From: a candidate division WOR-1 bacterium RIFCSPHIGHO2_01_FULL_53_15
GTDB lineage: Bacteria; Margulisbacteria; WOR-1; O2-12-FULL-45-9; XYB2-FULL-48-7
Direction: 5' to 3'
DNA length: 62,695 nt
Assembly: GCA_001772335.1 (NCBI GenBank)
Contig: METM01000027.1
Coordinates: 21,776 to 84,470 of the forward strand
The position numbers were made by a program, and so were the translations under genes. The notes under the pieces are model-generated. The model saw nothing but the letters and a program-made list of their open reading frames with translations. It did no database searches and was not told the DNA's origin. This document shows positions 30,752 through 56,298 of this stretch, piece by piece. Position 1 is the stretch's first letter. Each line of letters opens with the position of its first letter.

Positions 30752-30780
30752 TATTTATTCTTAAACCATCCTTTAACTGA

Positions 30781-30827
30781 TCCATCATCCCATACTCCGT
30801 CATATCACAATGGAGCGGCGTGATGGA
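30781..30827 (-). repeat. surE 3'-end remnant A
   Basis: 45/47 nt identical to surE 34978-35024. Flanks still read WLTGEV-ISITPLHCDMTEYGMMDQLK. Confidence 0.85.
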
Positions 30828-30850: not shown

Positions 30851-32305
30851 TCATATCAAAAAGAAATACTCCAATGGGACCGTAACAATGTTATTGCTTT
30901 GATCATAATTAAGCAAAGCGTTAGTTATCAACAGGCCAAAAGCCCCTTTTTTTCTTCTCATTGTCCCGATCACCTGATCCGCATCCCTCTTTCCCCAGCC
31001 AACTTCTATCACAACTCTCTTACCGCCGATCTCCAGGATAAAATCCGCCCCACCCTTGGCTGAATCGTAACTTAAGGCAAATAGCGGCTGGCCGCCATAT
31101 TCACGCTGCAGGCAGGCTCCAACCGCATCCTCAAGCAGCTTCCCTTTGTACTTCAGGTCGATCGCCTTGGAATCGATAATGTTCAGGAGCGCCGCACGGA
31201 TGCTCGGGGCCGCAAATAAATATTTCGACGGCTTGCGCACTTTTTTCCCGATCGACCCGTAAGGATAGACCCGGATCAATAGTTCTGACTTTTCCAGCAC
31301 CGCTAAAACACCTCGCAAAGTCCTCGGATCAATATTCTCAACTCCCCTGACCATGGTCGGCAAACTCATTTCATCAAAACCCGCCAGCATAAAGAGCACC
31401 CGCTGGATCTGCGCCGATTTTTCCGCGGTGAAACTTTTTAGCAAGGGGACGTCCCGCTCCACGATCCGGTCTACGACCATGTTGAGAATACTGTAAATTT
31501 GCGCCTCTTCTTTATACAGCAGCGTGCACGGCAATGAATAATATTTCAGGTATTTACCAATCATTAATGGATCGATCTCCTGCCAGTATGCCCTGACAGC
31601 CGTCTGCAGGAATAATAACCGATCATAAGCGGCCCTGGAGTTATCAGAGCTGAAAAGCGCGTCCTTTATCTGGTAGCCCAATTTAGGCGGAAACCTGGTA
31701 TTTTGCCCTTCAGCGCGAAAAGTTGAGATCATTGCGTATTCAGTGAACTTCAGCGGATACATTTTCTCAAATAAGGCGCGCCGCGCAATGTCCGTGTTGA
31801 CGTTCAAAGCAACCGCTGAAGAGCCGGTCGCGATAATAAAAACATTCTTTGTCCGGTCATATAACGTTTTGAGGGCAAACGCCCATTTTTTATCATATTG
31901 GACTTCATCAACCAACAGCAACACTTTCTCCTTCATTGCCGAGAGCCTCTCTCCCAGCAATTCCTGGTACGCGTCTATAACTTCGTAAAGATTGCTATTG
32001 ATCCGATTGACCACGTCATCGAGCGAAATGTAGATAATTCTGTTTGGAAAATCCCCCTTGAAACGCTGAAAAAGCTGGGCCAGGACCGTTGTTTTCCCTA
32101 CTCCGCGCAATCCCGGTATAACAATCCAGCGCGGCTCCGCGCTCTGCGCTAAAAAGTCCTTGATCTGCTTTTCCAGACGATAATAGATAAAACGCTTAAG
32201 GAGCGGCTGCCCCTTTTCACTGCTGGAGATCTGACGCAGGACACCTGTTTCTTCTGACAGCTGGTTGCTAACATATTGCTTAATTAAATCTGCTTCGGCA
32301 AACAC
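30851..32305 (-). CDS. AAA-family ATPase of the AAA_14/DUF4143 type
   Basis: Walker A PGLRGVGKTT, Walker B LLLVDEVQ, and a C-terminal nuclease-like tail (GADFILE..VVIEV). GTG start after GGGAGGGG. Confidence 0.7.
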   Translation of the reverse strand: MFAEADLIKQYVSNQLSEETGVLRQISSSEKGQPLLKRFIYYRLEKQIKDFLAQSAEPRWIVIPGLRGVGKTTVLAQLFQRFKGDFPNRIIYISLDDVVNRINSNLYEVIDAYQELLGERLSAMKEKVLLLVDEVQYDKKWAFALKTLYDRTKNVFIIATGSSAVALNVNTDIARRALFEKMYPLKFTEYAMISTFRAEGQNTRFPPKLGYQIKDALFSSDNSRAAYDRLLFLQTAVRAYWQEIDPLMIGKYLKYYSLPCTLLYKEEAQIYSILNMVVDRIVERDVPLLKSFTAEKSAQIQRVLFMLAGFDEMSLPTMVRGVENIDPRTLRGVLAVLEKSELLIRVYPYGSIGKKVRKPSKYLFAAPSIRAALLNIIDSKAIDLKYKGKLLEDAVGACLQREYGGQPLFALSYDSAKGGADFILEIGGKRVVIEVGWGKRDADQVIGTMRRKKGAFGLLITNALLNYDQSNNIVTVPLEYFFLI

Positions 32306-32327
32306 TATGTGCCCCTCCCGCCACTAT

Positions 32328-32353
32328 ATTTTATTTACTATGGTATGACATTA
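32328..32353 (-). promoter_or_regulatory. conserved promoter-like element P1
   Basis: Minus strand: TAATGTCATACC-ATAGTAAA-TAAAAT, upstream of the AAA ATPase gene. Overlaps the perfect palindrome CATTACTATAGTAATG. Confidence 0.55.
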
Positions 32354-32440
32354 CTATAGTAATGCCAAGCGCAACATTTTCAGCGTTTTTATAACTATTA
32401 TTCATTGCTTTTCTATCCCACCGGCCAACATTTTAACTGT

Positions 32441-32489
32441 TCTATATAATTATACTCCGTCATGTCACAATGGATAGGGCGCAACAGGA
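32441..32489 (-). repeat. surE 3'-end remnant B (degenerate)
   Basis: The central 23 nt match surE at 21/23. It reads ...PIHCDMTEYNYIEQLK. Confidence 0.65.
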
Positions 32490-33543: not shown

Positions 33544-33567
33544 TTATAATTTCCCCCTTTTAACTGA

Positions 33568-33598
33568 TCCATCATCGCATACTCCGTCATATCGCAAT
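33568..33598 (-). repeat. surE 3'-end remnant C
   Basis: 31/31 nt identical to surE 34978-35008. It reads CDMTEYAMMDQLKGGNYK*, and its TGA overlaps the next ATG. Confidence 0.85.
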
Positions 33599-33605
33599 CG
33601 GCACC

Positions 33606-34947: not shown

Positions 34948-35711
34948 TATTTGCTTTTATACCATTCTTTGATTTGTTCCATCATCGCATACTCCGTCAT
35001 ATCGCAATGGAGCGGCGTGATGGAAACATAACCTTGATTGATCGCATCAATATCACTATCCTGCTCGCCTTCCAGGTCAATAACCTCACCAGACAGCCAG
35101 TAATAAATCCGGCCGTGAGGATCGGTCCGCTTGTCGAATTTCTCGATAAAGGCTCGCTTGCTCTGCCGCGTAATCTTAACGCCTTTTACCTTTGACTTCA
35201 CCACCGCTGGAACATTGACATTAAGCAGTATCCCTTTCGGTAAACCTTTTTTAATGACCATTAAGGCTATCTTGCGAGCAAATTGGGCGGCAAAAGTATA
35301 ATCGGGCTTAGTAAATGTCCCCAGGGAGATCGCCATTGAAGGAATACCAAGGATAACGCCTTCCGTCGCACCCGATACTGTCCCCGAATAAAGGACGCTG
35401 AAGCCGGTATTGGGGCCGAGATTGATCCCGGAGATGACGAGGTCAGGTTTTTGCTTGAGGATCGCCCGGACCGCTAGCTTAACGCAATCGGCCGGCGTGC
35501 CAGTAGTTGAGTAAATATTTTTGTCCAACTGGTTGACCCGGAGAGGATCAGAGAGGGTGATCGCGTGACCGACCGCGCTCCGTTCGCTGTCGGGGGCGAC
35601 GATCGTGACATCCCCTATTCCCTTAACCGCTTTGTAGAGCGCCTGGATCCCGGCAGCGCTGATGCCGTCATCGTTAGTTAGAAGTATGCGCGGCTTACGC
35701 TTCCTAATCAT
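34947..35711 (-). CDS. surE: 5'/3'-nucleotidase SurE
   Basis: ILLTNDDGI..AGI, SGINLG.N and GYVSITPL motifs. Confidence 0.92.
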   Translation of the reverse strand: MIRKRKPRILLTNDDGISAAGIQALYKAVKGIGDVTIVAPDSERSAVGHAITLSDPLRVNQLDKNIYSTTGTPADCVKLAVRAILKQKPDLVISGINLGPNTGFSVLYSGTVSGATEGVILGIPSMAISLGTFTKPDYTFAAQFARKIALMVIKKGLPKGILLNVNVPAVVKSKVKGVKITRQSKRAFIEKFDKRTDPHGRIYYWLSGEVIDLEGEQDSDIDAINQGYVSITPLHCDMTEYAMMEQIKEWYKSK

Positions 35712-35752: not shown

Positions 35753-36169
35753 TTAGCGTTCGCCATTCTGGGCCTCGAGATAGACCTGCCGCCAGGCTTC
35801 CCGATCGATCGCCTCCTGCTCGAATTCATCCGTGGTTTTGACTGGATATAGAAGTGAATTCAATTCCCAGAGCTCTTCCGAGGTAAAGCTTGCCAGCCCT
35901 TTCCCCTGATAATATTCCCGCCACCGCGTCAGCTTCGGCTTGTCCCGCGGCGCCCGTCCATCGATCAAAAGCTCGACCTCTTCGCAACGGTTGAGGAATT
36001 TATTCGCTTTCCAGCGCTCCTTTTCGTCCAGATAAAAAAGGACCCAGCCTGTTTCGGGATCGATCGTCCATTTTTCGATCTTCAATTCCATTAAAAGCGC
36101 CTGGACAAAACCATCCTTTGGAATATCACCTAATTTGACTATCGCTTCAATAGTCTCGTCTTCCATCAT
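35753..36169 (-). CDS. hypothetical protein
   Basis: 138-aa ORF overlapping the upstream gene by 4 nt. No motif recognised. Confidence 0.45.
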   Translation of the reverse strand: MMEDETIEAIVKLGDIPKDGFVQALLMELKIEKWTIDPETGWVLFYLDEKERWKANKFLNRCEEVELLIDGRAPRDKPKLTRWREYYQGKGLASFTSEELWELNSLLYPVKTTDEFEQEAIDREAWRQVYLEAQNGER

Positions 36170-36381
36170 TCAACCTCCGCCCCGCATTGGGCGCATTTGA
36201 GCGTTGAGGAGATAATGTCCAGGTCCGGAGAGCCGCCGGAGAGAACCAGCCCCGATCTCCCTTTTGAGATCGACACTTCTTCCCGATAATTCGCCATCCC
36301 CTCATTGATGAACGAACTGCTCCCGCACGCGCAGGTATAAGTTTCGTTTTCTTCTTTTTGTTTAACTTTTTTCTTTGCCAT
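36166..36381 (-). CDS. small Cys4 zinc-ribbon protein
   Basis: MAKKKVKQKEENETYTCACG...(42 aa)...CAQCGAEVE. The internal ATG 36381 overlaps the ClpX-like 3' end by 20 nt. Confidence 0.4.
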   Translation of the reverse strand: MAKKKVKQKEENETYTCACGSSSFINEGMANYREEVSISKGRSGLVLSGGSPDLDIISSTLKCAQCGAEVE

Positions 36382-37396
36382 TGTTATTTGCCTCCTGTTT
36401 ACCAATATCGAACATCCGGTCCTCAAAAAACCGCCTGACCAGCGGGCCGACACAGCGCCCGCCCATTGCCTCGTGCGCTTTTGAAGCGGTGACGATCAAG
36501 TGAATTATCTCGGTATAGACGCCGGCTTCCTCGCCCGATATGGGAACATAGAAATTATACTCCTCCACTTCTTGCCTGATAAGCTGCTTGACCGCTTCCC
36601 CGTCAAGCGGCTCCAGGCGGATAATATTGCCGAGCCGATTGGCAAATTCCGGGATAAAGCCGTAGCGGACCAGGTCTTTATTATTTATTTCCTCTTTTTC
36701 TGCCAAACGGCCAAACGCCCCGCCAAAGATAAAGAGCACATTGCTGAAGTTAAACTTTTCCCGGTCATACTCCGTGTGGTCCGGCTCATAATAAACCTCC
36801 CCGCCGTCAATAATAGGGAGTAAATCTTGCTGGACGCCGCTGCCGGCAAAATCATCATCGCACCCCCAGCAGTTTCTGATCTTATCGATCTCGTCAATAA
36901 AGACGATCGCCCATTGAGCCTGTCGCCTTTGCTCTTTAGCCGAGGCCCGCAGCAGATCAACGATCTGTTCCGCGTGCATCCCGCCGCGGTAGCCCCGCTG
37001 GGTAAAATTAGTCGCATCAAGCTTTAGGTAAGGGACTTCGGCAATATCGGCCAGCGCCTTGGCCAGCATCGTCTTGCCGCAGCCGGACGGGCCGATCAGC
37101 AGCGCGTTCGTCTTGGGCAGCTGTTTCCCTTCTCGGGCCAACGCATAACGCTTGAGATGCTGGTAAAGGATGACCGACAAACTTTTTTTGGCCTCCGCCT
37201 GCCCCAGGACAGTTTTATTTAGCTCCTCGCAGATCTTTGACGGCGGGATGACAGGGTCATCAGCAAAAAGCTTCTCCTGCCTGGTGAGATTTTCCCGCCG
37301 ACCGCCCGCCGGCTCCTTTTCCGGCGCCACCAGCCCGTCAAACGCCCTGGCGATATCTTCTGCCGACAATAACTCTTTTTCCGACATTTTAAACAC
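36362..37396 (-). CDS. ClpX-like AAA+ ATPase lacking the N-terminal zinc-binding domain and the IGF-loop region
   Basis: L...V.GQ..AKK.LSV..Y.H.KR, Walker A IGPSGCGKTMLAKALA, pore-loop GYRGG, FIDEIDKI, GVQQDLLPIIDGG and GFIPEF.NRL all parallel ClpX. There are no N-terminal Cys residues and only a short segment where the IGF loop would sit. Confidence 0.7.
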   Translation of the reverse strand: MFKMSEKELLSAEDIARAFDGLVAPEKEPAGGRRENLTRQEKLFADDPVIPPSKICEELNKTVLGQAEAKKSLSVILYQHLKRYALAREGKQLPKTNALLIGPSGCGKTMLAKALADIAEVPYLKLDATNFTQRGYRGGMHAEQIVDLLRASAKEQRRQAQWAIVFIDEIDKIRNCWGCDDDFAGSGVQQDLLPIIDGGEVYYEPDHTEYDREKFNFSNVLFIFGGAFGRLAEKEEINNKDLVRYGFIPEFANRLGNIIRLEPLDGEAVKQLIRQEVEEYNFYVPISGEEAGVYTEIIHLIVTASKAHEAMGGRCVGPLVRRFFEDRMFDIGKQEANNNGKEKS

Positions 37397-37521: not shown

Positions 37522-37788
37522 TTACCACGCCCAGCCGCCCAGCTCCCGGAGGTCTTTTAGCGCCGGGCCTTTCAGGAACGAAAAAAGAAGAACTTTCTTG
37601 TGCTGGAAGGCAAACCCTTTTAAGGCGTAGGTCATCCCAAGTAAATAATCCTTGATCCGCCTCGCCTCCTCTTTGTTGACCGCTTGCTCCAGTGAAACGA
37701 GGATCTTGCCCGCCTTGCGGTATTTAATCGCCGCCTTTTTCCCCTCGTCATAATCCTTCGGACAATAGATCCTTGATATTACCGGCAT
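37522..37788 (-). CDS. hypothetical protein
   Basis: 88-aa ORF overlapping the upstream gene by 10 nt. Confidence 0.35.
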   Translation of the reverse strand: MPVISRIYCPKDYDEGKKAAIKYRKAGKILVSLEQAVNKEEARRIKDYLLGMTYALKGFAFQHKKVLLFSFLKGPALKDLRELGGWAW

Positions 37789-38633
37789 ATTTCCCCTCCT
37801 TTTTTCTTTTTCCCCGGCGGATCAAAAAGCTCCCAGAGTTGCCGGGGATCATTTAATGAGATCAGCCATTTTCCGCTTCTCATGTTTTTTAATATTTCGA
37901 AGACAACTTTTTGCGGCCGCTTGGACCTGTCCCTCTCCCAGTAGAGCCGGCAGAGGTATTGCACCAGAGGGGCGCAGCTCGCTACCTCCCGGGAGAGCTC
38001 GGCGCCGTTTTCCGTTTCCAGCGCGTTGACGGTAATAATAACAGCGGCATTATATTCTTCGGCCAGCCGCTTGATCTCTTTAACTGCCTTTTGGAGAAGT
38101 CCGGAGCGAAGCGCGGCACGATCACCTTGTTCGGGATAGTATTCGTAGATATAATCGATAGAGTCAATTATCACCAGCCAGGCCGGGATCTTTCTGGCAT
38201 GTTTCTCAACAGGGTCCATCGCCCTGACCTTTTCGGCCGGTTCTTCGTAAGCATATTTCTGGAATAGCAGTTCCATCTCGCTTGGTCTGGCCTCATCTAT
38301 CTCCTCACAGGAAACGCCTTGCACCGGTTCGATATAAAGGGGCGCTTTGGCGCCCGCGCCTGACAGACGATTGGCGATATTTGCCGGCCTTGATGAGGTC
38401 AAATAGAGCGTTTTGATGTTATTTTTGACCGCGCAAAACAGGGCGGCAGAGACGCAGAAGGCGGTTTTACCGGCCGCGTGCGGAGCAGAAACCGCCATAA
38501 TCTCCCCCGGCTCCATGCCGCCGCTCGCCTGGCTAATTAAACGCGCTCCGGTAAATATCGACTCTTTCTTACGCGCTTTTTCGATCTTTTCGGCAGCCAG
38601 TATCTCTTTTATTTTCATAGCGGGCGCCTCCAT
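37779..38633 (-). CDS. RecA-fold ATPase resembling the DnaB helicase C-terminal domain
   Basis: GGMEPGEIMAVSAPHAAGKTAFCVSAAL (Walker A) and VIIDSIDYI (Walker B-like). There is no DnaB N-terminal domain. Confidence 0.55.
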   Translation of the reverse strand: MEAPAMKIKEILAAEKIEKARKKESIFTGARLISQASGGMEPGEIMAVSAPHAAGKTAFCVSAALFCAVKNNIKTLYLTSSRPANIANRLSGAGAKAPLYIEPVQGVSCEEIDEARPSEMELLFQKYAYEEPAEKVRAMDPVEKHARKIPAWLVIIDSIDYIYEYYPEQGDRAALRSGLLQKAVKEIKRLAEEYNAAVIITVNALETENGAELSREVASCAPLVQYLCRLYWERDRSKRPQKVVFEILKNMRSGKWLISLNDPRQLWELFDPPGKKKKGGEICR

Positions 38634-38639
38634 ATGCTA

Positions 38640-38665
38640 TTTATACCATGGGCGGTATGACATTA
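38640..38665 (-). promoter_or_regulatory. conserved promoter-like element P3 (leaderless layout)
   Basis: Minus strand: TAATGTCATACC-GCCCATGG-TATAAA, then 6 nt before the ATG at 38633. Confidence 0.6.
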
Positions 38666-38671
38666 ATTGTC

Positions 38672-39418
38672 TTAGCGGTTCAAGATAGTTTTTGCCAGAG
38701 CAAGAGTGGGTTTTTTACCGGCGAGGGAAGCGTAGGCGGCGACCCTGATCAGGGCGCCCTCAAGCGCCCTGATGTTTGTAGTAATCCTTTTTACCAGATA
38801 AGCAAGCACTGCGGCGGGGACTTTATAATTTCCCAGTTTTGCTTTATTTTTTAAGATAGCAAGCCGCGTCTTAATTTCCGGCTGTTTGATCTTAACAATA
38901 GTCCCATGCTTAATAACCGGCAACTGGCACAACTTTTGGCTAAATATCGTGCCAGGCGGCCGGTCGCTCGTGATCACTATCTGTTTGCCCAATTTATACA
39001 ATTCGCTCAAAATGCCGATCAGCTCGCCCGCAGTCCGCTCCTTATGCCGCACAAATTGAAGATCGTCCAAAAGGAAGATGTCAGGGGCGCAATACTTCTT
39101 TCGGAAGCTATTATATTTGCCCAGCCGGAAAGCTTTAACAAGATCGCTGACGAATCTTTCCGTTGACACATAAGCGACTTTGCGCGGCGGCCTCTTATTT
39201 AAAATATAATTACCGATGGCCCACATTAAATGCGTTCTCCCCAACCCTTCCCCTCCGGTAATAAATAACGGGTTGTGCCGCTTCTCCAGCCCCCTGGCGA
39301 CATCAAGCGCCGCTTTAAAAGTGACGCGATTGGACGCGCCAACAACAAACGAGCTAAAAGCATATCTTTTGTAACGCCCATCCTTTTTCAGGTAAATACT
39401 ATTATCAAAGCTTTTCAC
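38672..39418 (-). CDS. DnaA domain-III-only (Hda-like) AAA+ protein with Walker-A Lys replaced by Arg
   Basis: FSSFVVGASN..A...A, NPLFITGGEGLGRTHL, LLDDLQF, ITSDRPP and the box VII/VIII-like NIRALEGALIRV. It ends where DnaA domain IV would begin. Confidence 0.7.
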   Translation of the reverse strand: MKSFDNSIYLKKDGRYKRYAFSSFVVGASNRVTFKAALDVARGLEKRHNPLFITGGEGLGRTHLMWAIGNYILNKRPPRKVAYVSTERFVSDLVKAFRLGKYNSFRKKYCAPDIFLLDDLQFVRHKERTAGELIGILSELYKLGKQIVITSDRPPGTIFSQKLCQLPVIKHGTIVKIKQPEIKTRLAILKNKAKLGNYKVPAAVLAYLVKRITTNIRALEGALIRVAAYASLAGKKPTLALAKTILNR

Positions 39419-39442
39419 GATCGCCTCATTTTCTTGCCCGCA

Positions 39443-39655
39443 TCAGTTTTTAGCTTTTATCTGCGCGATGAGCTCTCTTGCCTCACCTACGCGCTGCTTG
39501 TTATCCAGATACGCATTTCTCATCGTCTTCGCCAGACCAATCAAACCGTTTAAGCTCTCGCTCATGGATCTGTCCAGGGCATCGATATTGTTATCGATCC
39601 GGGAAAGATTTTCCAACAGAATCTCTGTCCGGTCATTTCCTCGCTTTTTTCGCAT
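39443..39655 (-). CDS. small coiled-coil hypothetical protein
   Basis: 70-aa ORF downstream of element P4. Confidence 0.35.
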   Translation of the reverse strand: MRKKRGNDRTEILLENLSRIDNNIDALDRSMSESLNGLIGLAKTMRNAYLDNKQRVGEARELIAQIKAKN

Positions 39656-39779
39656 GGCACACCCCCTCCACCCTATATAAACGTTTTATTTTTCCAAAAA
39701 ACTAAACTGGCGCCACTTTTTCGCGGCTTTATGCTTAATTTATTTTTCAAACTGGCGGCATCAGAATAATATATACCAT

Positions 39780-39805
39780 GGGCGGTGTGACATTAATGGG
39801 CAGGG
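39780..39805 (-). promoter_or_regulatory. conserved promoter-like element P4
   Basis: Minus strand: TAATGTCACACC-GCCCATGG-TATATA. It shares a 27-nt block (26/27 identical) with P3. Confidence 0.55.
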
Positions 39806-42426: not shown

Positions 42427-43410
42427 ATGGAACGCCACATACTATTCAGGATTTATGATATCGACCGGATGCTCAAGCGGAAAGAATATCCGAACTGCAC
42501 AAAGCTAAAAGAATATTTCCTTGAACATCACGGCTTAACCCTCTCGATCCGGACGATCATGCGCGACATTGACACTATGCGGCTTGACCTCGGCGCTCCT
42601 ATCGAGTATGACCGCGAAAAGAACGGCTATTACTATGAAAATGAGAGTTTCTCGCTCCCGGCCGTCCGCCTGACCGAAGGGGAACTGATCTCGATCTTCC
42701 TGGCCGAAGAGATCTTGAAGAAATATAAAAATACCCCGTTTGAAGCGACGATCAAGCGCGCGTTTGAGAAAGTCGAATTGCTCCTGCCACAGAGCGTCTC
42801 GATCGATTTCAATGAGATCGGCCAGGCCTACTCTTTTGATATCCGGCAGACCCGCCCCCTGGACAAGCAGTCGGCCAAGGTTTTTGACACGCTGGCCAAG
42901 GCGATCGGAGATAAAATGAGTGTGGAGATCAACTATTACGCCATCAGCCGCAACGCGACGCAAAAACGGGTCATCGATCCTTATCACCTGCGCCATACCC
43001 AGGGCGCCTGGTATTTGGTCGGTTATTGCCATCTCAGGAAAGAGGTGCGGACATTCGCGGTCAACCAGATCAGATCTATAAAAACGTTGAAAGAGCCTTT
43101 CACCGTCCGGGCGGACTTCTCGCCGGAAAAATTCTTTGAGCACTCCTGGGGGATATCGGAAGGTGGGCCTTTGACAAAAGTCGTGGTTAAAATCGACAAA
43201 GAGATCGCTCGCTGGTTTGAAGACCGCAAGCTCCACTCCAGCCAGCAAACCAAAGAAAACAAAGACGGCTCCCTCACCCTAACCTTCCGCGTCGCCGGGA
43301 CGAATGAGATCAAGCGGTGGATATTGAGCCAGGGAAGATATGCTAAAGTGGTGGAGCCGAAAGAATTGGAGCAGGAAATTAGGAGAGAGGTAATGGAGAT
43401 TTTGAAATAG
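42427..43410 (+). CDS. WYL-domain transcriptional regulator (wHTH-WYL-WCX architecture)
   Basis: N-terminal HTH region, then RVIDPYHLRHTQGAWYLVGYCHLRKEVRTFAVNQIRSI, the classic WYL core, and a C-terminal extension. Confidence 0.85.
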   Translation: MERHILFRIYDIDRMLKRKEYPNCTKLKEYFLEHHGLTLSIRTIMRDIDTMRLDLGAPIEYDREKNGYYYENESFSLPAVRLTEGELISIFLAEEILKKYKNTPFEATIKRAFEKVELLLPQSVSIDFNEIGQAYSFDIRQTRPLDKQSAKVFDTLAKAIGDKMSVEINYYAISRNATQKRVIDPYHLRHTQGAWYLVGYCHLRKEVRTFAVNQIRSIKTLKEPFTVRADFSPEKFFEHSWGISEGGPLTKVVVKIDKEIARWFEDRKLHSSQQTKENKDGSLTLTFRVAGTNEIKRWILSQGRYAKVVEPKELEQEIRREVMEILK

Positions 43411-43428
43411 GGAGGGGATGATTTAATT

Positions 43429-44250
43429 ATGTTGGAAAAATATTGGTATCCCAAAATTCAGAAGTATTTAGAAAACGAAGGCTATGTTTGTCATGGGTTT
43501 TACAAAAATGGGAAGAAGCTCGATTTTATTGATACGGGGATAGGCAATGCTCGCATTGATGTTCTGGGCATAAAAAGGGCATCTTTAATCGCATCAAATT
43601 TTCAACTCGAAACAATTGGAGTTGAAGTAAAACATATCGGTAAAATTACCATTAAAAATATAAGACAAGCCGCAAGTTATGCTCACCTTTGCACAAGATG
43701 CTATTTGGCGGCTCCAGTAGAAAGATTCTCCGAAAATGATAAGAAAAATGCAGCTCAAGCAGGGGTTGGATTAATCCGCTTAAAAAGAAAAAGAGTTGAT
43801 GTTATTGTTGAATCTAATAAGTTTCAACCAGACATCGATTTAATAAATCAGTTTCTATGGTTCTTAAATGTGGTTTTTTGCCCAATATGCAGAACATATA
43901 AGCATCGCTACGACCCAAAGGAACTTAAATATAATGGTGGATCTTGGAGAAATGATATATTTTCAAAAAAGAATAAATGGATATATATTTGCAACGAATG
44001 CAATATTAAGCTTTCAAAGAATACCAGACAATATCTAATGGCCCGGGAACTGGAACAGATTAGAAATCGATTTGAGGGAATTGAACAAAAACTTGCTAAA
44101 ACAAAAAGACATGTAGATAAAATAGACAACTATTATTACCATAAATATTTGAAGCTGAAGGGCAAAGGAGAGCGAAGCATCAAAAGGCTTGACAATTACT
44201 ATTATTCAAAGCATGCAAATCTAAACAGGGCATTGAAGAAGATTAAATAA
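43429..44250 (+). CDS. PD-(D/E)xK-like domain + Cys4 zinc ribbon + coiled-coil protein
   Basis: ARIDVLGI ... IGVEVKH core, CPICRTY...CNECN ribbon, and a C-terminal repeat (DNYYY.KY/H). Confidence 0.45.
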   Translation: MLEKYWYPKIQKYLENEGYVCHGFYKNGKKLDFIDTGIGNARIDVLGIKRASLIASNFQLETIGVEVKHIGKITIKNIRQAASYAHLCTRCYLAAPVERFSENDKKNAAQAGVGLIRLKRKRVDVIVESNKFQPDIDLINQFLWFLNVVFCPICRTYKHRYDPKELKYNGGSWRNDIFSKKNKWIYICNECNIKLSKNTRQYLMARELEQIRNRFEGIEQKLAKTKRHVDKIDNYYYHKYLKLKGKGERSIKRLDNYYYSKHANLNRALKKIK

Positions 44251-44299
44251 TTTAACATCCCCCCGTCCCGAGTGGCAGATTGACAAAGAAGGGATAATC

Positions 44300-44818
44300 A
44301 TGAAAGAACATGAAGTAATAGCAAAGACTTTAGTTTACTTAATAAAAAAAGAACAAGCAGAGATTAATTCAGTCGCGACCCCTAAAAAACATGAAAAATA
44401 CATTAAAAAAGCCATCAATAATGCCGGTCTGACAAAAAATCAAATAAATTTGATAACTTTTAAACAGGTAGGGGCGGATATAATTGCTGTTCTAAAATTT
44501 AAATCCGGACGACCACAAAAACGCATACAAATCGAAGCAAAAGGCGGAAATGTATATTACGGCATCTATACAGCATTGGGTCAGTTCATCTGTTTAAAAG
44601 AATCGCCTAGCACATATCATTGGTTTGCGTTCGCTTTCCCACTTCGTTGGCGAGAGAAAATAAGGAAATGGCTTTTAACTCCCAAGGAAAGGATAAAACC
44701 GGTAATTCGAGATATTATAAATCTATACACCAAAAACGGACAAGGCTTATGGTTTTATTTTATAAATGAAAAAACAGGGAAAGCAATAAAAGAAACATGG
44801 GAAACGACCTTGCGATAA
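44300..44818 (+). CDS. PD-(D/E)xK-like nuclease-fold protein
   Basis: GADIIAV ... RIQIEAKGG core. Confidence 0.4.
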   Translation: MKEHEVIAKTLVYLIKKEQAEINSVATPKKHEKYIKKAINNAGLTKNQINLITFKQVGADIIAVLKFKSGRPQKRIQIEAKGGNVYYGIYTALGQFICLKESPSTYHWFAFAFPLRWREKIRKWLLTPKERIKPVIRDIINLYTKNGQGLWFYFINEKTGKAIKETWETTLR

Positions 44819-44915
44819 CGAAGAAACCATGGAATGGCCAAATTGAATAACTCATAAAAAAATAATATCATAACCTTTTTTGTGTATTTGGCAAAAAGCC
44901 CCCACCCCTGTCCCG

Positions 44916-44941
44916 TAGTGTCATACCCCTCGTGCCATAAT
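44916..44941 (+). promoter_or_regulatory. conserved promoter-like element P5
   Basis: TAGTGTCATACC-CCTCGTGC-CATAAT, 10 nt before the ATG at 44952. Confidence 0.6.
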
Positions 44942-44951
44942 TACCGGTAGA

Positions 44952-45395
44952 ATGCCGTTTAAAACTTTAACCGATCTATATTTTGACAACAAAATTCAGG
45001 TCATCCCGCCCCGGGCGCTGACTTTCTTCGGCTACCTTAATGAGCTTGAAAAGACGCTGAAGACACCGGGGCTGATCGATCTGGATGAGGCCGACTTAAT
45101 GACCATCCTGTTCGGCGCCAGCCGGGCGGCTATTGTTGTGATCGAGTCCCCGCTTAAAGAGATAACCGGAAAATTGCGCCGCACTCTGCGGCAGGTCAAA
45201 GCCAAAAAAGCGGACGGCGCAATCTTCCATGTCATCGGCGATGAAAACATGACGCTATCAGATGTCAACGATGTCGCTGAAACAATTTATACCGTTCTCA
45301 ATGACAAGGCCAATATTATTTTTGGCGCGGCGATCGATGAAGAGATGAAAAGAACCGTCAGGGTGCTGATAATTCTGGTCAATCGGGATGAATGA
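44952..45395 (+). CDS. FtsZ C-terminal-domain-only homologue (T7-loop region onward; no GTP-binding domain)
   Basis: TPGLIDLDEADLMTIL parallels FtsZ TPGLINLDFADVKTIM. MTLSDVNDVAETIYTVLNDKANIIFGAAIDEEMKRTVRVLIILV parallels FtsZ LSLYEVQEAADIV...NMIFGSVINENLKDEIVVTVIATG. Confidence 0.7.
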   Translation: MPFKTLTDLYFDNKIQVIPPRALTFFGYLNELEKTLKTPGLIDLDEADLMTILFGASRAAIVVIESPLKEITGKLRRTLRQVKAKKADGAIFHVIGDENMTLSDVNDVAETIYTVLNDKANIIFGAAIDEEMKRTVRVLIILVNRDE

Positions 45396-45509
45396 AATTA
45401 AACAATGAACCCGAGGAGGTATGCGGATGAGGATGAACCAAGAAGTTTCCGTGAAGATGTCAGAGAAGAAACGAAAGCAGTTGCCCGCGGGTAGTCATGC
45501 CTGGCCTCG

Positions 45510-45535
45510 TAGTGTCATACCCCTCCTGCCATAAT
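45510..45535 (+). promoter_or_regulatory. conserved promoter-like element P6
   Basis: TAGTGTCATACC-CCTCCTGC-CATAAT, 12 nt before the ATG at 45548. Confidence 0.6.
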
Positions 45536-45547
45536 TACCGGCATAAT

Positions 45548-45835
45548 ATGTTGACTTTCCTTAAACAATTATTCTGCAAGCATAAATGGGCGGCGCGCAA
45601 AGACATGCCCGTCGCGGCCTTGATCAGATCACGGGGTAGAACAAAGAGGTGCAGTAAATGTCAAAAAGAGTGGACCGACCCGTCGCTTAGGGGCATCCCC
45701 ATAAGTTTATCCTACCGAATAGTCGAATTCTGGGAAATAATGTATTGGGACCGGAAAATACTTCGCTTAAGCATGAGCGACGCTTACAAAGCATCGAAAA
45801 AGCTGAACGCGCTCACTTTACAGGAAAGGAGCTGA
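45548..45835 (+). CDS. small hypothetical protein (Cys/Lys-rich)
   Basis: The internal ATG immediately after element P6 (MLTFLKQLFCKHKW...CSKCQKEW) gives 95 aa. Confidence 0.35.
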   Translation: MLTFLKQLFCKHKWAARKDMPVAALIRSRGRTKRCSKCQKEWTDPSLRGIPISLSYRIVEFWEIMYWDRKILRLSMSDAYKASKKLNALTLQERS

Positions 45836-45844
45836 TCTGCCCCA

Positions 45845-45870
45845 TAATGTCATCCCCCTAGTGCCATACT
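45845..45870 (+). promoter_or_regulatory. conserved promoter-like element P7 (leaderless layout)
   Basis: TAATGTCATCCC-CCTAGTGC-CATACT, 6 nt before the ATG at 45877. Confidence 0.55.
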
Positions 45871-45876
45871 ACAACT

Positions 45877-46083
45877 ATGATTAATTTACTAATGCCCGGG
45901 CTTGTGTTGATCGCCATGATCTGGAGTTTTGGCTGTGTCGTTTACTGGCTCGCCAAGACCGCGGAGTGGCTGGAAAACGCCGGCCGACCGCCGGAGATCC
46001 ATATCCACAATCACCCCGTTCAGCGGGAAGTTTATGTCTCAAGGATCATTGAGAAAGAGAGACGGATTTTCTTGCCTAGATAG
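45877..46083 (+). CDS. small membrane protein
   Basis: 68 aa with one N-terminal TM helix (LLMPGLVLIAMIWSFGCVVYWL). Confidence 0.35.
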   Translation: MINLLMPGLVLIAMIWSFGCVVYWLAKTAEWLENAGRPPEIHIHNHPVQREVYVSRIIEKERRIFLPR

Positions 46084-47440: not shown

Positions 47441-47492
47441 ATAAATACTAAATGCTAAATACTAAACAAGACCAAAATACTAATGACCAAAA
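47441..47492 (+). repeat. heptamer-based (CTAAATA-type) repeat block, 5' flank and N-terminus of four-helix-bundle gene 1
   Basis: ATAAATACTAAATGCTAAATACTAAACAAGACCAAAATACTAATGACCAAA. A direct copy lies at 47856-47907. Confidence 0.7.
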
Positions 47493-47850
47493 AACAAAAA
47501 GACGCTATGATCTTGAGGAAAGAACAATGTTGTTTGCAAGGGAGACCAATGCTTTCGTTCGGCGACTGCCAAAAGATGTAACGGTATCTGAGAACGGCAG
47601 ACAATTAGTTCGCTCGGCTGGTTCCGTGGCCGCCAACTACATTGAAGCCAACGAAGCGCTAAGCAAGAAGGATTTTATAATGAGGATCAAGATCTGCCGA
47701 AAGGAAGCGAAAGAAAGTCGCCTTTGGCTCAATCTTCTCCAGCCGCCAATTCAGGAGATGACTTATAAGGACCGCCTTCTGGATGAGGCAACGCAACTCA
47801 TGAAAATATTTGGGGCGATACTGACAAAGACGGGAAACACAAAGTTTTAA
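47452..47850 (+). CDS. four-helix-bundle protein (23S rRNA intervening-sequence protein family)
   Basis: YDLEERT..FA......RLPK......QL.RSAGSVAANYIEANEA.SKKDF..R.KICRKEAKES..WL.LL is the family signature. Confidence 0.85.
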   Translation: MLNTKQDQNTNDQKTKRRYDLEERTMLFARETNAFVRRLPKDVTVSENGRQLVRSAGSVAANYIEANEALSKKDFIMRIKICRKEAKESRLWLNLLQPPIQEMTYKDRLLDEATQLMKIFGAILTKTGNTKF

Positions 47851-47855
47851 GCTCT

Positions 47856-47907
47856 TAAATACTAAACGCTAAATACCAAACAAGAACAAAAATGCTAATG
47901 GTCAAAT
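47856..47907 (+). repeat. direct copy of the heptamer repeat block
   Basis: TAAATACTAAACGCTAAATACCAAACAAGAACAAAAATGCTAATGGTCAAA, compared with 47441-47492. Confidence 0.65.
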
Positions 47908-47950
47908 TTTCAAAATAATGAAGACTCGTTTCGGTCATTCAGATTTTGTG

Positions 47951-47995
47951 TTATTTGAATTTGTTTAGTATTTAGAAATTAGCATTTAGTATTTC
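47951..47995 (-). repeat. inverted orphan copy of a four-helix-bundle gene 5' end
   Basis: 47951-47975 is 25/25 identical to 60322-60346, the 5' coding end of gene copy 2. No ORF follows. Confidence 0.7.
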
Positions 47996-54036: not shown

Positions 54037-54096
54037 ACCGGTTATTCTAACAAGTCATTCTTGCTCTGTCTATTTATATTTGTTATCATTATTAAA

Positions 54097-56298
54097 ATGT
54101 TTCTGAAATCGCTCAGCCTGCGCGGCTTTAAGACGTTCGCGGACGCGACCGAGATCGAGTTCGGCCCCGAAGCCAGGATCACGGCGATCGTCGGCCCCAA
54201 CGGCTGCGGCAAGAGCAACCTGCTCGACGCCATCCGCTGGGTTCTGGGCGAGGACAACGCCCGCGACCTGCGCGTCGCGGCGCTCGCCGACATAATTTTC
54301 TCCGGCACCGACCGGCGCAAACCGCTTTCGCTGGCCGAGGTCGGCCTGCTGTTCGACAATTCAACTGCAAAATTCAACGTTCCCTTCACCGAGGTCGGCC
54401 TCCGCCGGCGGACGTTCCGCGAGGGCGAGAGCGAGTTTTTTATCAACAAGAACCTCTGCCGCCTCAAGGACATCAAGGACCTGCTGCTCGACACGGGGCT
54501 CGGCGAAGGCGCTTATTCCATCATCACCCAGGGGCAGGTCGACGCCATCCTCTCGAGCAAGGGCGAAGAGCGGCGCGCCGTGTTTGAGGCGGCGGCCGGC
54601 ATCAACAAGTACAAAACCCGCAAGCTGAACGCCGAAAAAAAACTGATCGCGGCCGAGCAGAATATCCTCCGGATCAACGACCTCAAGATCGAGGTCGGCG
54701 AGCGCCTGATCACTCTCGAAGAGCAGGCGCGCCGCGCCCGGGAATATCTCGCCCTGCAGGCAGAGATCAAAGAGATCGAGATCGGCCTCAGCAAAAAGCT
54801 GATCGGGGGCCTGCTTGAGAAAAAAGCCCGGCTGGAGGCAGAGCTCGCCGCCGCCCGGGAGGCTTCACGGCAAAAAGTCGAAACGGAGAAAAAGGACGAG
54901 ACGGAATTGCTCGGCCGCAAAGAAACCCTGAGACAGAAAGAGCTCGAGCTGGACGAGCTCGCGGTCAAGCTCGACTCCGAAAAGGACCGCCGGCGCGATC
55001 TCGAGCTCAACCGGCGTTTCGTGGCGGGGGAGATCGAGCGCGCCGAGAAACAGCAGGAATTGCTGGCCGCCAAAAAGGGCGAACTGCAAAAAAAGATCGG
55101 GGAGCTCAAACAAAAAGAAGCCGCGGAAACTCCGCCGCCTGTTTTCCTTCAGGAACTTTACGCGCAGATGAAGAATTCTGTCGAGCTGTTTGCCTCGATC
55201 CTTGCCTTTTTTGGCGCGGCGGCACCCTTTTCCCACGCCGACCAAAAATTAAGCGAAGCCGTCGATTTCAAGCTTGAACTGCTGGAAACGGAGACCAAGC
55301 GGCTGGCTGAGGAGATCGAGCGCGCCGGCTTCAGTTTGCAGGCGCACCGAGCGCAACTTGAGAATCTGGCCGCGGCGGACAACAAAAACAAGCCGGCGCT
55401 CGACGAAACAATCGCGGCCCGCCGCGCCGAACGCGATGAGCTGCGCCGCGCGATCGTCGGCCTCGAGGAGAAAAGGCGGGCGGAGGACCGGGACGAGCGG
55501 TCGGCCGAAGGCCGCATCACTCAGCTTGAGATCGCCCTGGCCAAACTGGAGGGCGAGATGACCGGTCTCTCGGAAAAACTTTTCAACGAATACAACCTGA
55601 CGCTGGCGGAGATCGAGGCCCTGCCGCAGACGGCCGCCGGCGCGGGGCGGGCGCGCGCCGAGCTTGATGAAAAAAAATCGCGCCTGCGCGCGCTTGAGCC
55701 GGTCAACCTCCTGGCCATCGAAGAATTCGACCGGAGCCGCGAGCGGCTGACCTTTATCGAGGTCCAGCTCGCGGACCTCAATTCGGCGCGCGACAACCTG
55801 CGCGCCCTGATCAGTGAGCTTGACGCGCGCGCCGAAGAAAATTTCTTGAAGACCATGGCCCGGCTCTCGGTCGTTTTTTCGGAGACCTTCGCCCGGCTCT
55901 TTGCCGGCGGCGAGGCGAAGATCGAGCTGTCGGCCGGCGCGCCCGCTTTGTCGGCCGAGATCGAGATCTCGGTGCGGCCGCTGGGCCGCCGCTGGCTCCC
56001 CCTCTCCCAGCTTTCGGGCGGCGAGCGCTCGCTCTCGGCCAGCGCGATCCTTTTTTCGCTCATGAAGATCCGGCCGGCGCCTTTCTGCTTCCTTGACGAG
56101 GTCGACGCGGCGCTCGACGAGGCCAACATCGGGCGCTTCACCGAGATGCTCAAGGATTTCGCCGCGGCCGCCCAGATCCTCATCATCACGCACAATAAGC
56201 GGACGATGGCGGCGGCCGATAACATCTACGGGATAACGATGGAAGAGCCGGGCGTCTCAAAAGTCATCTCCATGAAACTTGCCGGAGCGGCCGCATGA
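54097..56298 (+). CDS. smc: SMC-family ATPase, short (733 aa), no recognisable hinge domain
   Basis: The head N-terminus is FLKSLSLRGFKTFA..GPNGCGKSNLLDAIRWVLGE. The C-terminus has LSGGERSL..SAILFS...PAPFCFLDEVDAALDE and ITHNKRTM. The middle is coiled coil only. Confidence 0.8.
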   Translation: MFLKSLSLRGFKTFADATEIEFGPEARITAIVGPNGCGKSNLLDAIRWVLGEDNARDLRVAALADIIFSGTDRRKPLSLAEVGLLFDNSTAKFNVPFTEVGLRRRTFREGESEFFINKNLCRLKDIKDLLLDTGLGEGAYSIITQGQVDAILSSKGEERRAVFEAAAGINKYKTRKLNAEKKLIAAEQNILRINDLKIEVGERLITLEEQARRAREYLALQAEIKEIEIGLSKKLIGGLLEKKARLEAELAAAREASRQKVETEKKDETELLGRKETLRQKELELDELAVKLDSEKDRRRDLELNRRFVAGEIERAEKQQELLAAKKGELQKKIGELKQKEAAETPPPVFLQELYAQMKNSVELFASILAFFGAAAPFSHADQKLSEAVDFKLELLETETKRLAEEIERAGFSLQAHRAQLENLAAADNKNKPALDETIAARRAERDELRRAIVGLEEKRRAEDRDERSAEGRITQLEIALAKLEGEMTGLSEKLFNEYNLTLAEIEALPQTAAGAGRARAELDEKKSRLRALEPVNLLAIEEFDRSRERLTFIEVQLADLNSARDNLRALISELDARAEENFLKTMARLSVVFSETFARLFAGGEAKIELSAGAPALSAEIEISVRPLGRRWLPLSQLSGGERSLSASAILFSLMKIRPAPFCFLDEVDAALDEANIGRFTEMLKDFAAAAQILIITHNKRTMAAADNIYGITMEEPGVSKVISMKLAGAAA

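Follow-up and report, generated by a model that had tools for sequence, protein, structure and literature searches.

The DNA analyzed here (the window) is a stretch of 62,695 nucleotides from a Margulisbacteria/Saganbacteria genome, and its setting is a chromosomal island that is not a recognizable phage. In the island are found the gene for a WYL regulator, nuclease-like cargo and the remnant of a replication module; with both mobile-element and defence-type genes present, the island agrees with the mobile-element setting proposed in a first-pass annotation that was made from the letters alone. The gene of interest lies on the + strand at 44952..45395, as that annotation had placed it (ATG at 44952, TGA at 45393-45395), and encodes a 147-aa protein identified by profile, PDB and structure matches as a stand-alone FtsZ C-terminal (GTPase-activating domain) protein. 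Upstream on the same strand are the gene for a 327-aa HTH-WYL-WCX regulator of the PafBC/DriD type (42427..43410; Pfam WYL and WCX) and, between it and the FtsZ_C gene, two low-GC (0.34) genes for proteins of 273 and 172 aa (43429..44818), which are read as nuclease-like from D...ExK motifs recognized by eye and a weak PADLOC match. This slot is variable, being occupied in Saganbacteria (homologous locus L001) by an AIPR abortive-infection gene. Downstream, also on the + strand, follow the gene for a 95-aa Cys/His-containing protein (CxH...CxxC; 45548..45835), which has no known family and no Pfam match, and the gene for a 68-aa protein with one membrane helix predicted from sequence (45877..46083) and likewise no family match. 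The Cys/His protein shares 57% identity with the product of the gene that immediately follows the Saganbacteria FtsZ_C gene (L001 5275-5583); its gene is present in the window and in L001-L003 and absent in L005, L014, L015, L018 and L021. Among neighbors elsewhere are a helicase-nuclease in L021 and Fic in L015.

The likeness of the 147-aa protein to FtsZ goes far beyond what chance would give. Pfam FtsZ_C (PF12327), the profile on which the first-pass annotation had made its identification depend, gives a significant match (E 7.3e-15; 55.5 bits, cut-off 27), and both of the peptide strings cited there are found in the protein, TPGLIDLDEADLMTIL as residues 38-53 and NIIFGAAIDEEMKRTVRVLIILV as residues 121-143. 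The TIGR00065 ftsZ model aligns over its positions 202-322 of 353 with a score of 51.3, below the cut-off of 295.2. The best PDB match is to residues 224-338 of M. jannaschii FtsZ (E 5e-13), after which come about 45 further FtsZ structures, and identity to FtsZ is 30-40% over ~110 residues. Structure prediction, which had been suggested as a check, yielded a confident FtsZ C-terminal fold: the AlphaFold2 model has a pLDDT of 87.7, and the top 50 Foldseek matches obtained with it are all FtsZ (best E 6e-12; query-normalized TM 0.63-0.72). As modeled, the protein has the C-terminal end of helix H7 and the T7 loop, together with the FtsZ C-terminal subdomain in full, and the original description of a stand-alone fragment made of the T7 region and C-terminal subdomain is thus upheld by profile, PDB and model matches.

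The remainder of FtsZ was sought within the protein, across the window and at homologous loci. Pfam gives FtsZ_C only for the 147-aa protein, in which neither the GTP-binding domain (Pfam Tubulin, PF00091) nor its GGGTGxG signature is found. Searches of the whole 62.7-kb window by tblastn with two full-length FtsZ queries match only 45066-45392 and find no N-terminal domain, and in seven homologous loci the same kind of search matches only the equivalent part of the gene and finds no GTPase domain, in accord with the earlier statement that no nucleotide-binding domain is encoded upstream. One tblastn FtsZ alignment in the window runs on to 45479, beyond the stop codon. The protein ends four residues past strand S10 (...ILVNRDE), with no linker and no C-terminal peptide of the kind that binds FtsA, ZipA or SepF.

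Proteins of this type are rare (about a dozen 50%-identity clusters, with lengths of 145-155 aa), and as judged from sequence they are a family whose architecture is new to the tubulin/FtsZ superfamily. The highest score among them is that of the window protein, whose match is full-length, includes the N-terminal motif and involves no other domain. That motif, of the type M-P-F-K-x-L-x-D-L-Y-F-D-N-K, opens a conserved stretch of ~24-30 residues; in the window protein it forms a family-specific cap (residues 1-24, MPFKTLTDLYFDNKIQVIPP...; 44952..45023, + strand) that lies outside the FtsZ models, is kept in all close family members and is predicted in the AlphaFold2 model to contain a helix (residues 2-11) and a strand (residues 15-18). 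Comparison of the window gene with that of L005 gives a dN/dS of ~0.18, indicating purifying selection. One family member is a fusion to an HNH nuclease. A scan of GTDB representatives found only the Saganbacteria locus, and one scan of JGI metagenome contigs with the family patterns found no match. The literature library that was searched describes no protein of this kind, which is in keeping with the novelty that the annotation had claimed to the best of its knowledge.

The gene is preceded by a promoter-like box in which TGTCATAC is followed after ~9 nt by a -10 hexamer a few bases 5' of the ATG. The copy before the FtsZ_C gene (W1; 44914..44947, + strand), recognized as a repeated motif, consists of TGTCATAC, 9 nt and an extended -10 (TGc-CATAAT), with the ATG 10 nt past the -10 and no Shine-Dalgarno sequence. 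Its core, GTAGTGTCATACCCCTC[G/C]TGCCATAATTACCGG, occurs at 44915 and again at 45509 within a second copy (W2; 45508..45541, + strand), where 0 occurrences are expected by chance. Four further, more divergent copies elsewhere in the island bring the total to six (W1-W6): W3 (45843..45876, + strand), with an ATG 6 nt after its -10, and, on the - strand, W4 (38639-38667) before a DnaB-like/AAA_25 ATPase gene, W5 (39769-39797) before a 70-aa gene and a DnaC/DnaA-like ATPase gene, and W6 (32328-32353) before an AAA_14/DUF4143 ATPase gene. The box is also found 5' of the homologues in L001 and L005, and the box and FtsZ_C gene stand behind three different upstream neighbors in the window, L001 and L005; the two form an autonomous unit. 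The promoter-like element that had been assigned to this gene is real, repeated, and travels with the gene in other lineages. In P0004 the box is seen translated inside a mis-called N-terminus.

The box lies at about -26, at a fixed distance from the -10 hexamer. A sigma-70 consensus scan reports no -35/-10 pair at the box sites because a -35 is missing, and an ordinary sigma-70 promoter was rejected on these grounds; a weak conventional candidate (TTGAAT-17-TATCAT, 44843-44871) ~80 nt upstream may provide a second start. A structured RNA or hairpin repeat was rejected as well, there being no Rfam match at the box and a folding energy equal to that of shuffled sequence (z ~0). The layout resembles that of PafBC- and DriD-dependent promoters, in which a box likewise stands at a fixed distance from the -10 (PMC11804915, PMC13004042), and the best PDB matches of the WYL regulator are PafBC (6sj9, E 3e-20), PafB and DriD. 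An orthologue with 61% identity occupies the same position in L001/L002, and the L001 WYL gene is itself preceded by a box with the palindrome TATGACAatatcTGTCATA; no box precedes the WYL gene of the window. With an HTH-WYL-WCX regulator next to the putative targets, and boxes at a fixed distance from a -10 with no consensus -35, the island has these two features of a WYL-activator regulon, which makes the WYL protein a candidate regulator of the boxes, although a factor other than the WYL protein could bind them.

On the - strand, box W4 stands before two genes, the DnaB-like/AAA_25 ATPase gene (37779-38633) and a gene for an 88-aa SepF-core-only homologue (37522-37788), which together with the box span 37522..38667. 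The SepF gene is a second division-protein fragment behind the same box in the window; with single sequences its assignment is borderline (27.0 bits, cut-off 27), and the AlphaFold2 model is poor (pLDDT 55.6). The same DnaB-like ATPase and SepF-like pair lies two genes 5' of the FtsZ_C-like gene in L014, where the SepF-core-only and FtsZ_C-like genes are in one operon, and related mobile elements have the SepF-like gene within a replication module. The remaining boxed genes on the - strand are the 70-aa gene and DnaC/DnaA-like ATPase gene (38672..39797 including W5) and the AAA_14/DUF4143 ATPase gene (30851..32353 including W6).

The 147-aa protein has no match in PHROGs v4; tblastn against 50,697 INPHARED phage records gives matches only from residue 36 onward, as in full-length ftsZ; no family member was found in IMG/VR; and the only strong match in BFVD is a full-length phage FtsZ. 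A phage origin of the family was rejected on these results. In PADLOC-DB 2.0 neither the FtsZ_C protein nor its Cys/His partner has a match, those obtained (WYL, PDC-M15A/S26 and Cas3-HD-like) being to neighboring genes only, and the FtsZ_C protein was thus not assigned to a known defence system. A type II toxin-antitoxin pair was dismissed because the Cys/His partner is missing in five loci and each gene has its own box in the window.

In FtsZ filaments the upper subunit contributes H10, S9, H8 and T7 to the longitudinal contact, H10 and S9 being contact regions A and B (PMC8936486), and all four of these "bottom" face elements are present in the 147-aa protein according to the AlphaFold2 model and alignment. 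Helix H10 (residues 102-115) and strand S9 (residues 121-128), encoded at 45255..45335 on the + strand, are its most FtsZ-like stretch, and in the alignment their conservation across the family is close to the level in FtsZ. The T7 synergy-loop region (TPGLIDLDEAD, residues 38-48; 45063..45095, + strand), located from alignment columns, is more relaxed: D45 and D48 are the counterparts of D209 and D212 in E. coli, D43 stands in place of N207, and the motif N-x-D-F-A-D reads D-L-D-E-A-D. Across the 14 aligned family members the D212-equivalent is Asp in 13 and Glu in one, the first T7 position is Asn in seven, the second is acidic in eight, and the F210-equivalent is Phe in none. Because only the D212-equivalent is conserved and the equivalents of N207, D209 and F210 vary within the family, a conserved GTPase-activating T7 loop cannot be assumed for the family as a whole. 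The roles of T7 residues in FtsZ have been described (PMC8936486), and the positions equivalent to those needed for assembly in S. aureus FtsZ (N208 and D210; PMC8936486) vary within the stand-alone family.

The reading that we favor, tentatively and at rather less than an even chance, is that the 147-aa protein is made on induction and binds host FtsZ at the face that carries the nucleotide, either sequestering FtsZ or capping filament ends. The neighboring PafBC/DriD-like WYL regulator would control the box, and a stress signal, for example single-stranded DNA arising from damage or infection, would switch on the FtsZ_C gene, giving a transcript with little or no leader. The protein would then dock through T7, H8, S9 and H10 on the nucleotide-bearing top face of host FtsZ, its N-terminal helix and strand taking the place of the missing GTPase domain. 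Since the fragment has no top face of its own, nothing should polymerize onto it, and the predicted consequences are sequestration of GTP-bound monomers and capping of the top (shrinking) filament end, with treadmilling disturbed and division delayed or blocked. In the current treadmilling model filaments grow at the bottom (T7) end, which monomers join via their GTP-bound top face (PMC8936486); a protein with only a T7 face would therefore take up the top face of unassembled monomers as well as the end that shrinks, so that sequestration or minus-end capping, and not a block of the growing end, is to be expected. A top-end cap might instead stabilize filaments rather than inhibit them.

The same surface permits a second reading, unlikely in our estimation, in which the fragment is a decoy or sensor: by presenting the surface of FtsZ at which most known inhibitors are directed, it would titrate away or sense FtsZ inhibitors of phages or other elements, with the result that the host Z-ring is protected or a linked effector triggered. 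MinC, MciZ and MipZ dock on H10, the S8-H10 loop or the T7 region in the C-terminal domain of FtsZ (PMC9897490), a region intact in the 147-aa protein; the neighbors are defence-like (AIPR in L001, nuclease-like and WYL genes in the window, the helicase-nuclease in L021, Fic in L015), and the HNH-nuclease fusion has a sensor-plus-effector layout. However, no effector is consistently linked to the family, PADLOC has no match for the FtsZ_C protein, the L014 gene is in a replication-type operon, and these hosts, which are uncultured, have no known FtsZ inhibitor. It is just as doubtful that the fold has been exapted for a job unrelated to FtsZ, such as partner to the Cys/His protein or accessory to replication or regulation, its likeness to FtsZ reflecting ancestry. 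The degenerate T7 loop, the addition of a new conserved N-terminal segment, the covariation of the Cys/His partner with the FtsZ_C gene in two lineages (57% vs 59% identity) and the position of the L014 gene after a DnaB-like ATPase gene all suit this view, but the 30-40% identity to FtsZ over 110 residues is concentrated in H10 and S9, the D212-equivalent is kept, and the Cys/His partner is absent from L005 and more distant members. A more elaborate scheme of guard or decoy immunity, improbable as it appears, would have anti-FtsZ proteins of phages or plasmids bind the decoy and, together with the WYL regulator, turn on a variable effector (AIPR, nucleases or the fused HNH); the co-regulated SepF-core-only protein could be a second decoy for another FtsZ interface.

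The two FtsZ domains fold independently, which lends some plausibility to half of a split FtsZ that pairs with a separately encoded GTPase domain to give a polymerizing protein, yet searches in every frame of the window and of the seven family loci find no Tubulin/FtsZ GTPase domain, and the upstream genes differ between loci, making this proposal very improbable; it was rejected. A functionless, decaying remnant of a duplicated ftsZ, suggested by the partial coverage of FtsZ, is hardly credible given the dN/dS of 0.18, the frame that is intact and equally long across about a dozen divergent clusters and the conservation of both the new N-terminus and the promoter box, and the earlier judgement that this is not a broken ftsZ stands.

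Relative to canonical FtsZ (TIGR00065), the 147-aa protein has the same C-terminal fold, with T7, H8, S7-S10, H9 and H10 all recognizable; it differs in being without the GTPase domain, the C-terminal linker and the tail peptide, in its new 24-30-residue N-terminal cap and relaxed T7 motif, and in that no head-to-tail self-polymerization is possible. SulA, MciZ, MipZ and MinC would share with it the proposed outcome, a blocked polymerization interface of FtsZ, and SulA is likewise stress-induced; none of them is related to it in sequence or fold, and MinC, MciZ and MipZ bind the bottom (C-terminal, growing-end) face (PMC9897490), whereas the 147-aa protein would bind the opposite, nucleotide face. 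The logic that a subunit with one working polymerization face poisons the filament is shared with engineered FtsZ interface mutants (PMC8936486); those are full-length laboratory proteins, however, and the toxic ones are without a working bottom face, while the 147-aa protein is without a top face, and mutants of that class are reported to be less toxic. ARC3 provides a precedent for a non-polymerizing inhibitor of FtsZ assembly that derives from FtsZ (bioRxiv 10.1101/2024.01.08.574726), likened here by description; this eukaryotic protein is large and built of several domains, including middle and MORN domains, and is placed by the Min system. As for control, the adjacent regulator has the HTH-WYL-WCX architecture of DriD (Caulobacter, DriD-DidA) and PafBC (mycobacteria), which are WYL activators of DNA-damage genes, and, at 327 aa, is like DriD in length; the promoters of both have a specific box at a fixed distance 5' of the -10 and no -35, as in the island. 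DriD drives a division inhibitor (PMC10853764), and this best-known target, DidA, parallels the role proposed here. The DriD site and the island box differ in sequence, and DidA, a small membrane protein, has FtsN and not FtsZ as its target. Regulation in the island is a prediction, and the WYL protein may just as well repress its targets, like BrxR and CapW. By analogy, the proposed stress-induced role would resemble those of SOS-SulA and DriD-DidA, except that here the inhibitor would be built from FtsZ itself.

Bacterial division centers on FtsZ, which is also a drug target, and to our knowledge the natural protein inhibitors of FtsZ described so far are all unrelated to it in sequence. Should the favored reading hold, the 147-aa protein would represent another type of FtsZ regulator, a dominant-negative fragment directed at the nucleotide face, and it would offer a ready-made probe of filament polarity and treadmilling. 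The link to a WYL regulator and the swappable defence cargo suggest that islands of uncultured Margulisbacteria couple stress or infection sensing to division control. If the function proves to be another, the family is still a new architecture in the tubulin/FtsZ superfamily, one in which the two FtsZ domains have had separate evolutionary lives.

The full-length FtsZ proteins that score best against the family profile are Margulisbacteria-like, by a small margin. An origin from the FtsZ of the host lineage itself was set aside in view of that margin and of the best PDB score, which belongs to an archaeal FtsZ. Derivation of the N-terminal cap from FtsZ strand S6 and helix H6 (DNKIQVI vs NDKLLQVI) was also considered and is a weak possibility, as the predicted secondary structure disagrees. 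A few divergent FtsZ matches reach as far as the cap region.

The open reading frame for the FtsZ_C protein begins with the ATG at 44952, ends with the TGA at 45393–45395 and encodes 147 residues, of which residues 75–142 match Pfam FtsZ_C with E 7.3e-15 and a score of 55.5 bits (curated cut-off, 27 bits). Residues 32–143 align with positions 202–322 of the 353 in the NCBIfam ftsZ equivalog, with a score of 51 bits that is far under the 295-bit cut-off for real FtsZ, and a phmmer search of the PDB returned ~45 FtsZ structures, headed by M. jannaschii FtsZ (residues 224–338, E 5e-13). The likeness to FtsZ is significant in all methods applied; the protein fails membership of FtsZ proper, yet clearly belongs to the superfamily. 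An AlphaFold2 model from 40 input sequences is confident (pLDDT 87.7, pTM 0.82), and when it was compared with the PDB by Foldseek the top 50 matches were all FtsZ (best E 6e-12; query-normalised TM 0.63–0.72; best superposition 2.3 Å rmsd over 124 columns). The model begins with a helix (residues 2–11) and a strand (15–18), followed by the C-terminal part of H7 (25–37), the T7 loop, H8 (46–53), S7 (58–67), H9 (68–81), S8 (89–96), H10 (102–115), S9 (121–128) and S10 (135–144). The first-pass annotation had recognized an FtsZ fragment here with no N-terminal GTPase domain upstream, and both points are borne out: there is no GTPase domain near the gene, as tblastn of the whole window with two full-length FtsZ sequences matched only 45066–45392, with one alignment running on to 45479, beyond the stop codon.

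When 1.84 billion representative proteins were searched exhaustively with the profile, the matches to its whole length, the first 30 residues included, formed roughly a dozen 50%-identity clusters of FtsZ_C proteins 145–155 residues long; ordinary FtsZ rank below them and are matched only from profile position ~32 on. A word-indexed search added close relatives and more distant members. Identity to the window protein is 68% for P0002, 58–59% for P0003 (annotated Candidatus Saganbacteria) and 55% for P0004, and the N-terminal motif MPFKxLTDLYFDNK is invariant among close relatives and can still be made out in most of the family. Between the window gene and the relative at 68% identity, dN/dS is ~0.18 and dS is ~1.2, which is close to saturation. 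The gene is a member of a gene family and not a fragment of a dead gene, so that the earlier claim that it is not a broken ftsZ holds. Searches of 50,697 phage records, IMG/VR and PHROGs yielded no family member, nor did BFVD yield one as a short protein, and PADLOC has no model for it. In one relative, P0021 (296 aa; 1173–2063 in locus L015, also in L016 and L017), an HNH nuclease domain and a coiled coil are fused ahead of an FtsZ_C module that includes the family N-terminal motif, and the gene adjoins a Fic/HTH_17 pair.

In S. aureus FtsZ filaments the elements of the upper subunit that make the longitudinal contact are H10, S9, H8 and T7, which all belong to the C-terminal half (PMC8936486); the 147-aa protein has every one of the four. 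When 14 family members were compared column by column with 26 FtsZ proteins, conservation of H10 and S9 (LTLxEVNxxAExIY ... ANIIFGAxID) was nearly as strong as in FtsZ. In the PGLI at the start of T7, Gly-Leu is invariant, Ile is found in 13 of the 14 and Pro in 11; the residue equivalent to D212 (E. coli numbering) is Asp in 13 and Glu in the other. The N207 equivalent is Asn in only seven members (Asp in the window protein), the D209 equivalent is acidic in eight, and Phe occurs in none at the position of F210. Because these T7 residues vary, and because N208L, D210N and D213N each destroy assembly of S. aureus FtsZ (PMC8936486), a fully competent synergy loop is not to be assumed for the family. 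The C-terminus lies four residues past S10; the linker and the tail peptide, FtsZ's binding site for FtsA, ZipA or SepF, are absent.

The best-supported reading, still a tentative one, is that the 147-aa protein may bind the nucleotide-bearing top face of host FtsZ via its retained bottom-face elements. According to current structures, FtsZ filaments grow at the bottom (T7) end, with monomers arriving via a pre-organised GTP-bound top face (PMC8936486). A protein with a bottom face alone would thus compete for the top faces of free monomers, and would also occupy the top, shrinking end of filaments; no subunit could add to it, since it lacks a top face. Monomer sequestration and altered disassembly would be expected, leading to a disturbed Z-ring, and futile GTP hydrolysis would be possible if D45 and D48 were catalytically competent. 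Top-face binding is favored by the contact elements that the protein retains and by the regulatory parallel described below; against it are the relaxed T7 loop and the unexplained partner genes. Whereas MinC, MciZ and MipZ bind the H10/T7 region of FtsZ (PMC9897490), the 147-aa protein is predicted to bind the top face; closer to it in logic are plant ARC3, an FtsZ-like inhibitor that does not polymerise (bioRxiv 10.1101/2024.01.08.574726), and engineered FtsZ mutants with one face. A limited search of PMC and bioRxiv full texts found no description of a stand-alone FtsZ C-terminal-domain protein.

The surface displayed by the 147-aa protein is exactly the one that known inhibitors attack, its gene has defence-like neighbours, and one family member is fused to HNH; these features would suit a decoy or sensor, which we nevertheless consider unlikely. 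The degenerate T7, the new N-terminus, the co-varying Cys/His partner and the replication-type operon around a family gene in locus L014 would fit an exapted role unrelated to FtsZ, a doubtful reading also. That the protein is one half of a split FtsZ is very improbable, as no partner domain was found in the window and tblastn with FtsZ in seven family loci matched the C-terminal half only, with no separately encoded GTPase partner nearby. A pseudogene is scarcely credible, being contradicted by selection and conservation.

The window is bacterial chromosome, with thrS, topA, mutL, clpB, radA and smc; its RadA is 85–87% identical to those of Candidatus Margulisiibacteriota genomes (one truncated Saganbacteria match reaches 92%), and 19 contigs, a Rifle groundwater genome among them, encode the identical protein. 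The FtsZ_C gene lies inside a stretch from ~29 to 48 kb where G+C is lower and patchy and genes of ATPase and nuclease type are abundant. Upstream is a gene for an HTH-WYL-WCX regulator (42427–43410) whose best PDB matches are PafBC (E 3e-20), PafB and DriD, and between the two are low-GC (0.34) genes for 273- and 172-aa products, read as PD-(D/E)XK-like candidates from D...ExK motifs and a weak PADLOC match. Downstream are genes for a 95-aa Cys/His protein (45548–45835), a 68-aa membrane protein and an HD-domain protein. The Saganbacteria locus, L001, has a WYL orthologue (61% identity) followed by an AIPR abortive-infection gene where the window has its two nuclease-like genes, and after that come the FtsZ_C gene and a Cys/His orthologue (57%). 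The WYL gene and the FtsZ_C/Cys-His pair (G+C 0.47–0.51, versus 0.34 for the cargo) thus frame a slot with lineage-dependent cargo, and when window 42427–45835 is compared with L001 2022–5583 the site resembles a hotspot of cargo swapping. A third lineage (L005) has yet other genes upstream and no Cys/His gene; distant members variously neighbor an XRE regulator, a Fic/HTH pair or a helicase-nuclease, or lie within an integrative element (L014).

The promoter element proposed upstream of the gene proves to be a conserved box with six copies in the window and others in L001 and L005. Its consensus is TAATGTCATACC, a gap of ~9 nt and a −10-like hexamer, often preceded by TG. On the forward strand W1 (44914–44947) precedes the FtsZ_C gene, W2 (45508–45541) the Cys/His gene and W3 (45843–45876) the membrane-protein gene; on the reverse strand W4 (38639–38667) precedes a DnaB-like ATPase and SepF-like operon, W5 (39769–39797) a 70-aa gene and DnaC-like operon, and W6 (32328–32353) an AAA_14 ATPase gene. 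A 35-codon ORF, 45427–45534 (+; MRMNQEVSVKMSEKKRKQLPAGSHAWPRSVIPLLP), between the FtsZ_C gene and W2 and crossing W2, has a strong Shine-Dalgarno GAGGAGG 7 nt upstream; it is not in the Saganbacteria locus, where the FtsZ_C and Cys/His genes abut. At four of the six boxes the ATG is 6–12 nt past the −10 with no Shine-Dalgarno, so that the messages would be leaderless or nearly so; the other two have long leaders and strong ribosome-binding sites. The box of the FtsZ_C gene is also found in L001, in more divergent form in L005, and within the wrongly extended N-terminus of P0004. The L001 WYL gene has its own upstream box, with palindrome TATGACAatatcTGTCATA and an ATG 7 nt past TATAAT; none precedes the window's own WYL gene. 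No structured RNA was found at the box, and a sigma-70 consensus scan misses it because there is no −35.

This layout, a box near −26 at fixed spacing from the −10 with no −35, is shared with promoters dependent on PafBC (the '−26 motif' of sigma adaptation; PMC11804915) and on DriD (PMC13004042). The founding target of DriD is DidA, a division inhibitor (PMC10853764). From these parallels we infer that the adjacent WYL protein governs a regulon marked by the box, with the FtsZ_C gene probably inducible by stress or infection. The WYL protein could instead be a repressor, like BrxR and CapW, or another factor could act at the box.

The end of the DnaB-like gene behind box W4 overlaps the 88-aa SepF-like ORF (37522–37788, −), which scores 27.0 bits against Pfam SepF, exactly the gathering score (E 5e-6). 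A profile from 16 homologues matched only SepF structures in the PDB (8hzt, E 8e-5; 3zih, E 1e-4); among the homologues, several have a precomputed SepF domain, and one bears the source name YlmF. Canonical SepF has an N-terminal membrane-binding helix; because the homologues, at 87–102 aa, are about as long as the SepF Pfam domain, they are read as core-only SepF, apparently lacking that helix. As the AlphaFold2 model is poor (pLDDT 55.6), the assignment is one of sequence. Genes of 88–91 aa in the window and at L014 6585–6860, L118 9001–9273, L120 8453–8719 and L121 370–645 are always paired with a DnaB-like/AAA_25 ATPase gene; PHROGs assigns the ATPases to replication. The putative promoter of the window pair is the TGTCATAC box, as for the FtsZ_C gene. 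The pair is the backbone of an integrative-element family in Margulisbacteria, Saganbacteria and related genomes, with the order XRE regulator, SepF-like, DnaB-like, 78-aa gene, variable slot, DUF2958, SSB, integrase or resolvase, and primase; in L014 the slot holds an FtsZ_C-family gene (P0158). The window pair is 50% and 37% identical to that of L014, and as SSB, DUF2958 and integrase are absent from the window its element seems to be degraded or rearranged. Two distant loci combine FtsZ_C-like with SepF-core genes, a small sample that hints at a shared theme. On the strand of the SepF-like gene and downstream of it (35753–37396) are genes for a ClpX-like AAA_2 ATPase (344 aa), a 95-aa Cys-rich and a 138-aa protein, which may form one transcription unit with it; ClpX is a modulator of FtsZ in several bacteria.

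The SMC homologue (54061–56298, +) has only 745 aa and, since the 1181-position SMC model is matched in two stretches only (N-terminal head and C-terminal part), seems to be without much of the coiled coil or hinge. The final ~59 nt of surE (34947–35711, −) recur three times downstream at 63–88% identity (3'-end repeat copies at 30769–30827, 32429–32487, 33556–33614 and 34966–35024), alternating with defence-type genes (DUF2779, AAA_14/DUF4143, resolvase-like nuclease, PDDEXK_4), which looks like the scars of serial site-specific insertion at the surE 3' end. The gene for a 23S-rRNA-intervening-sequence protein (47452–47850) has a 36-nt direct repeat on both sides (47442 and 47856; 92% identical), with inverted copies at 47954–47994, an arrangement that resembles a small cassette (region 47442–47994).
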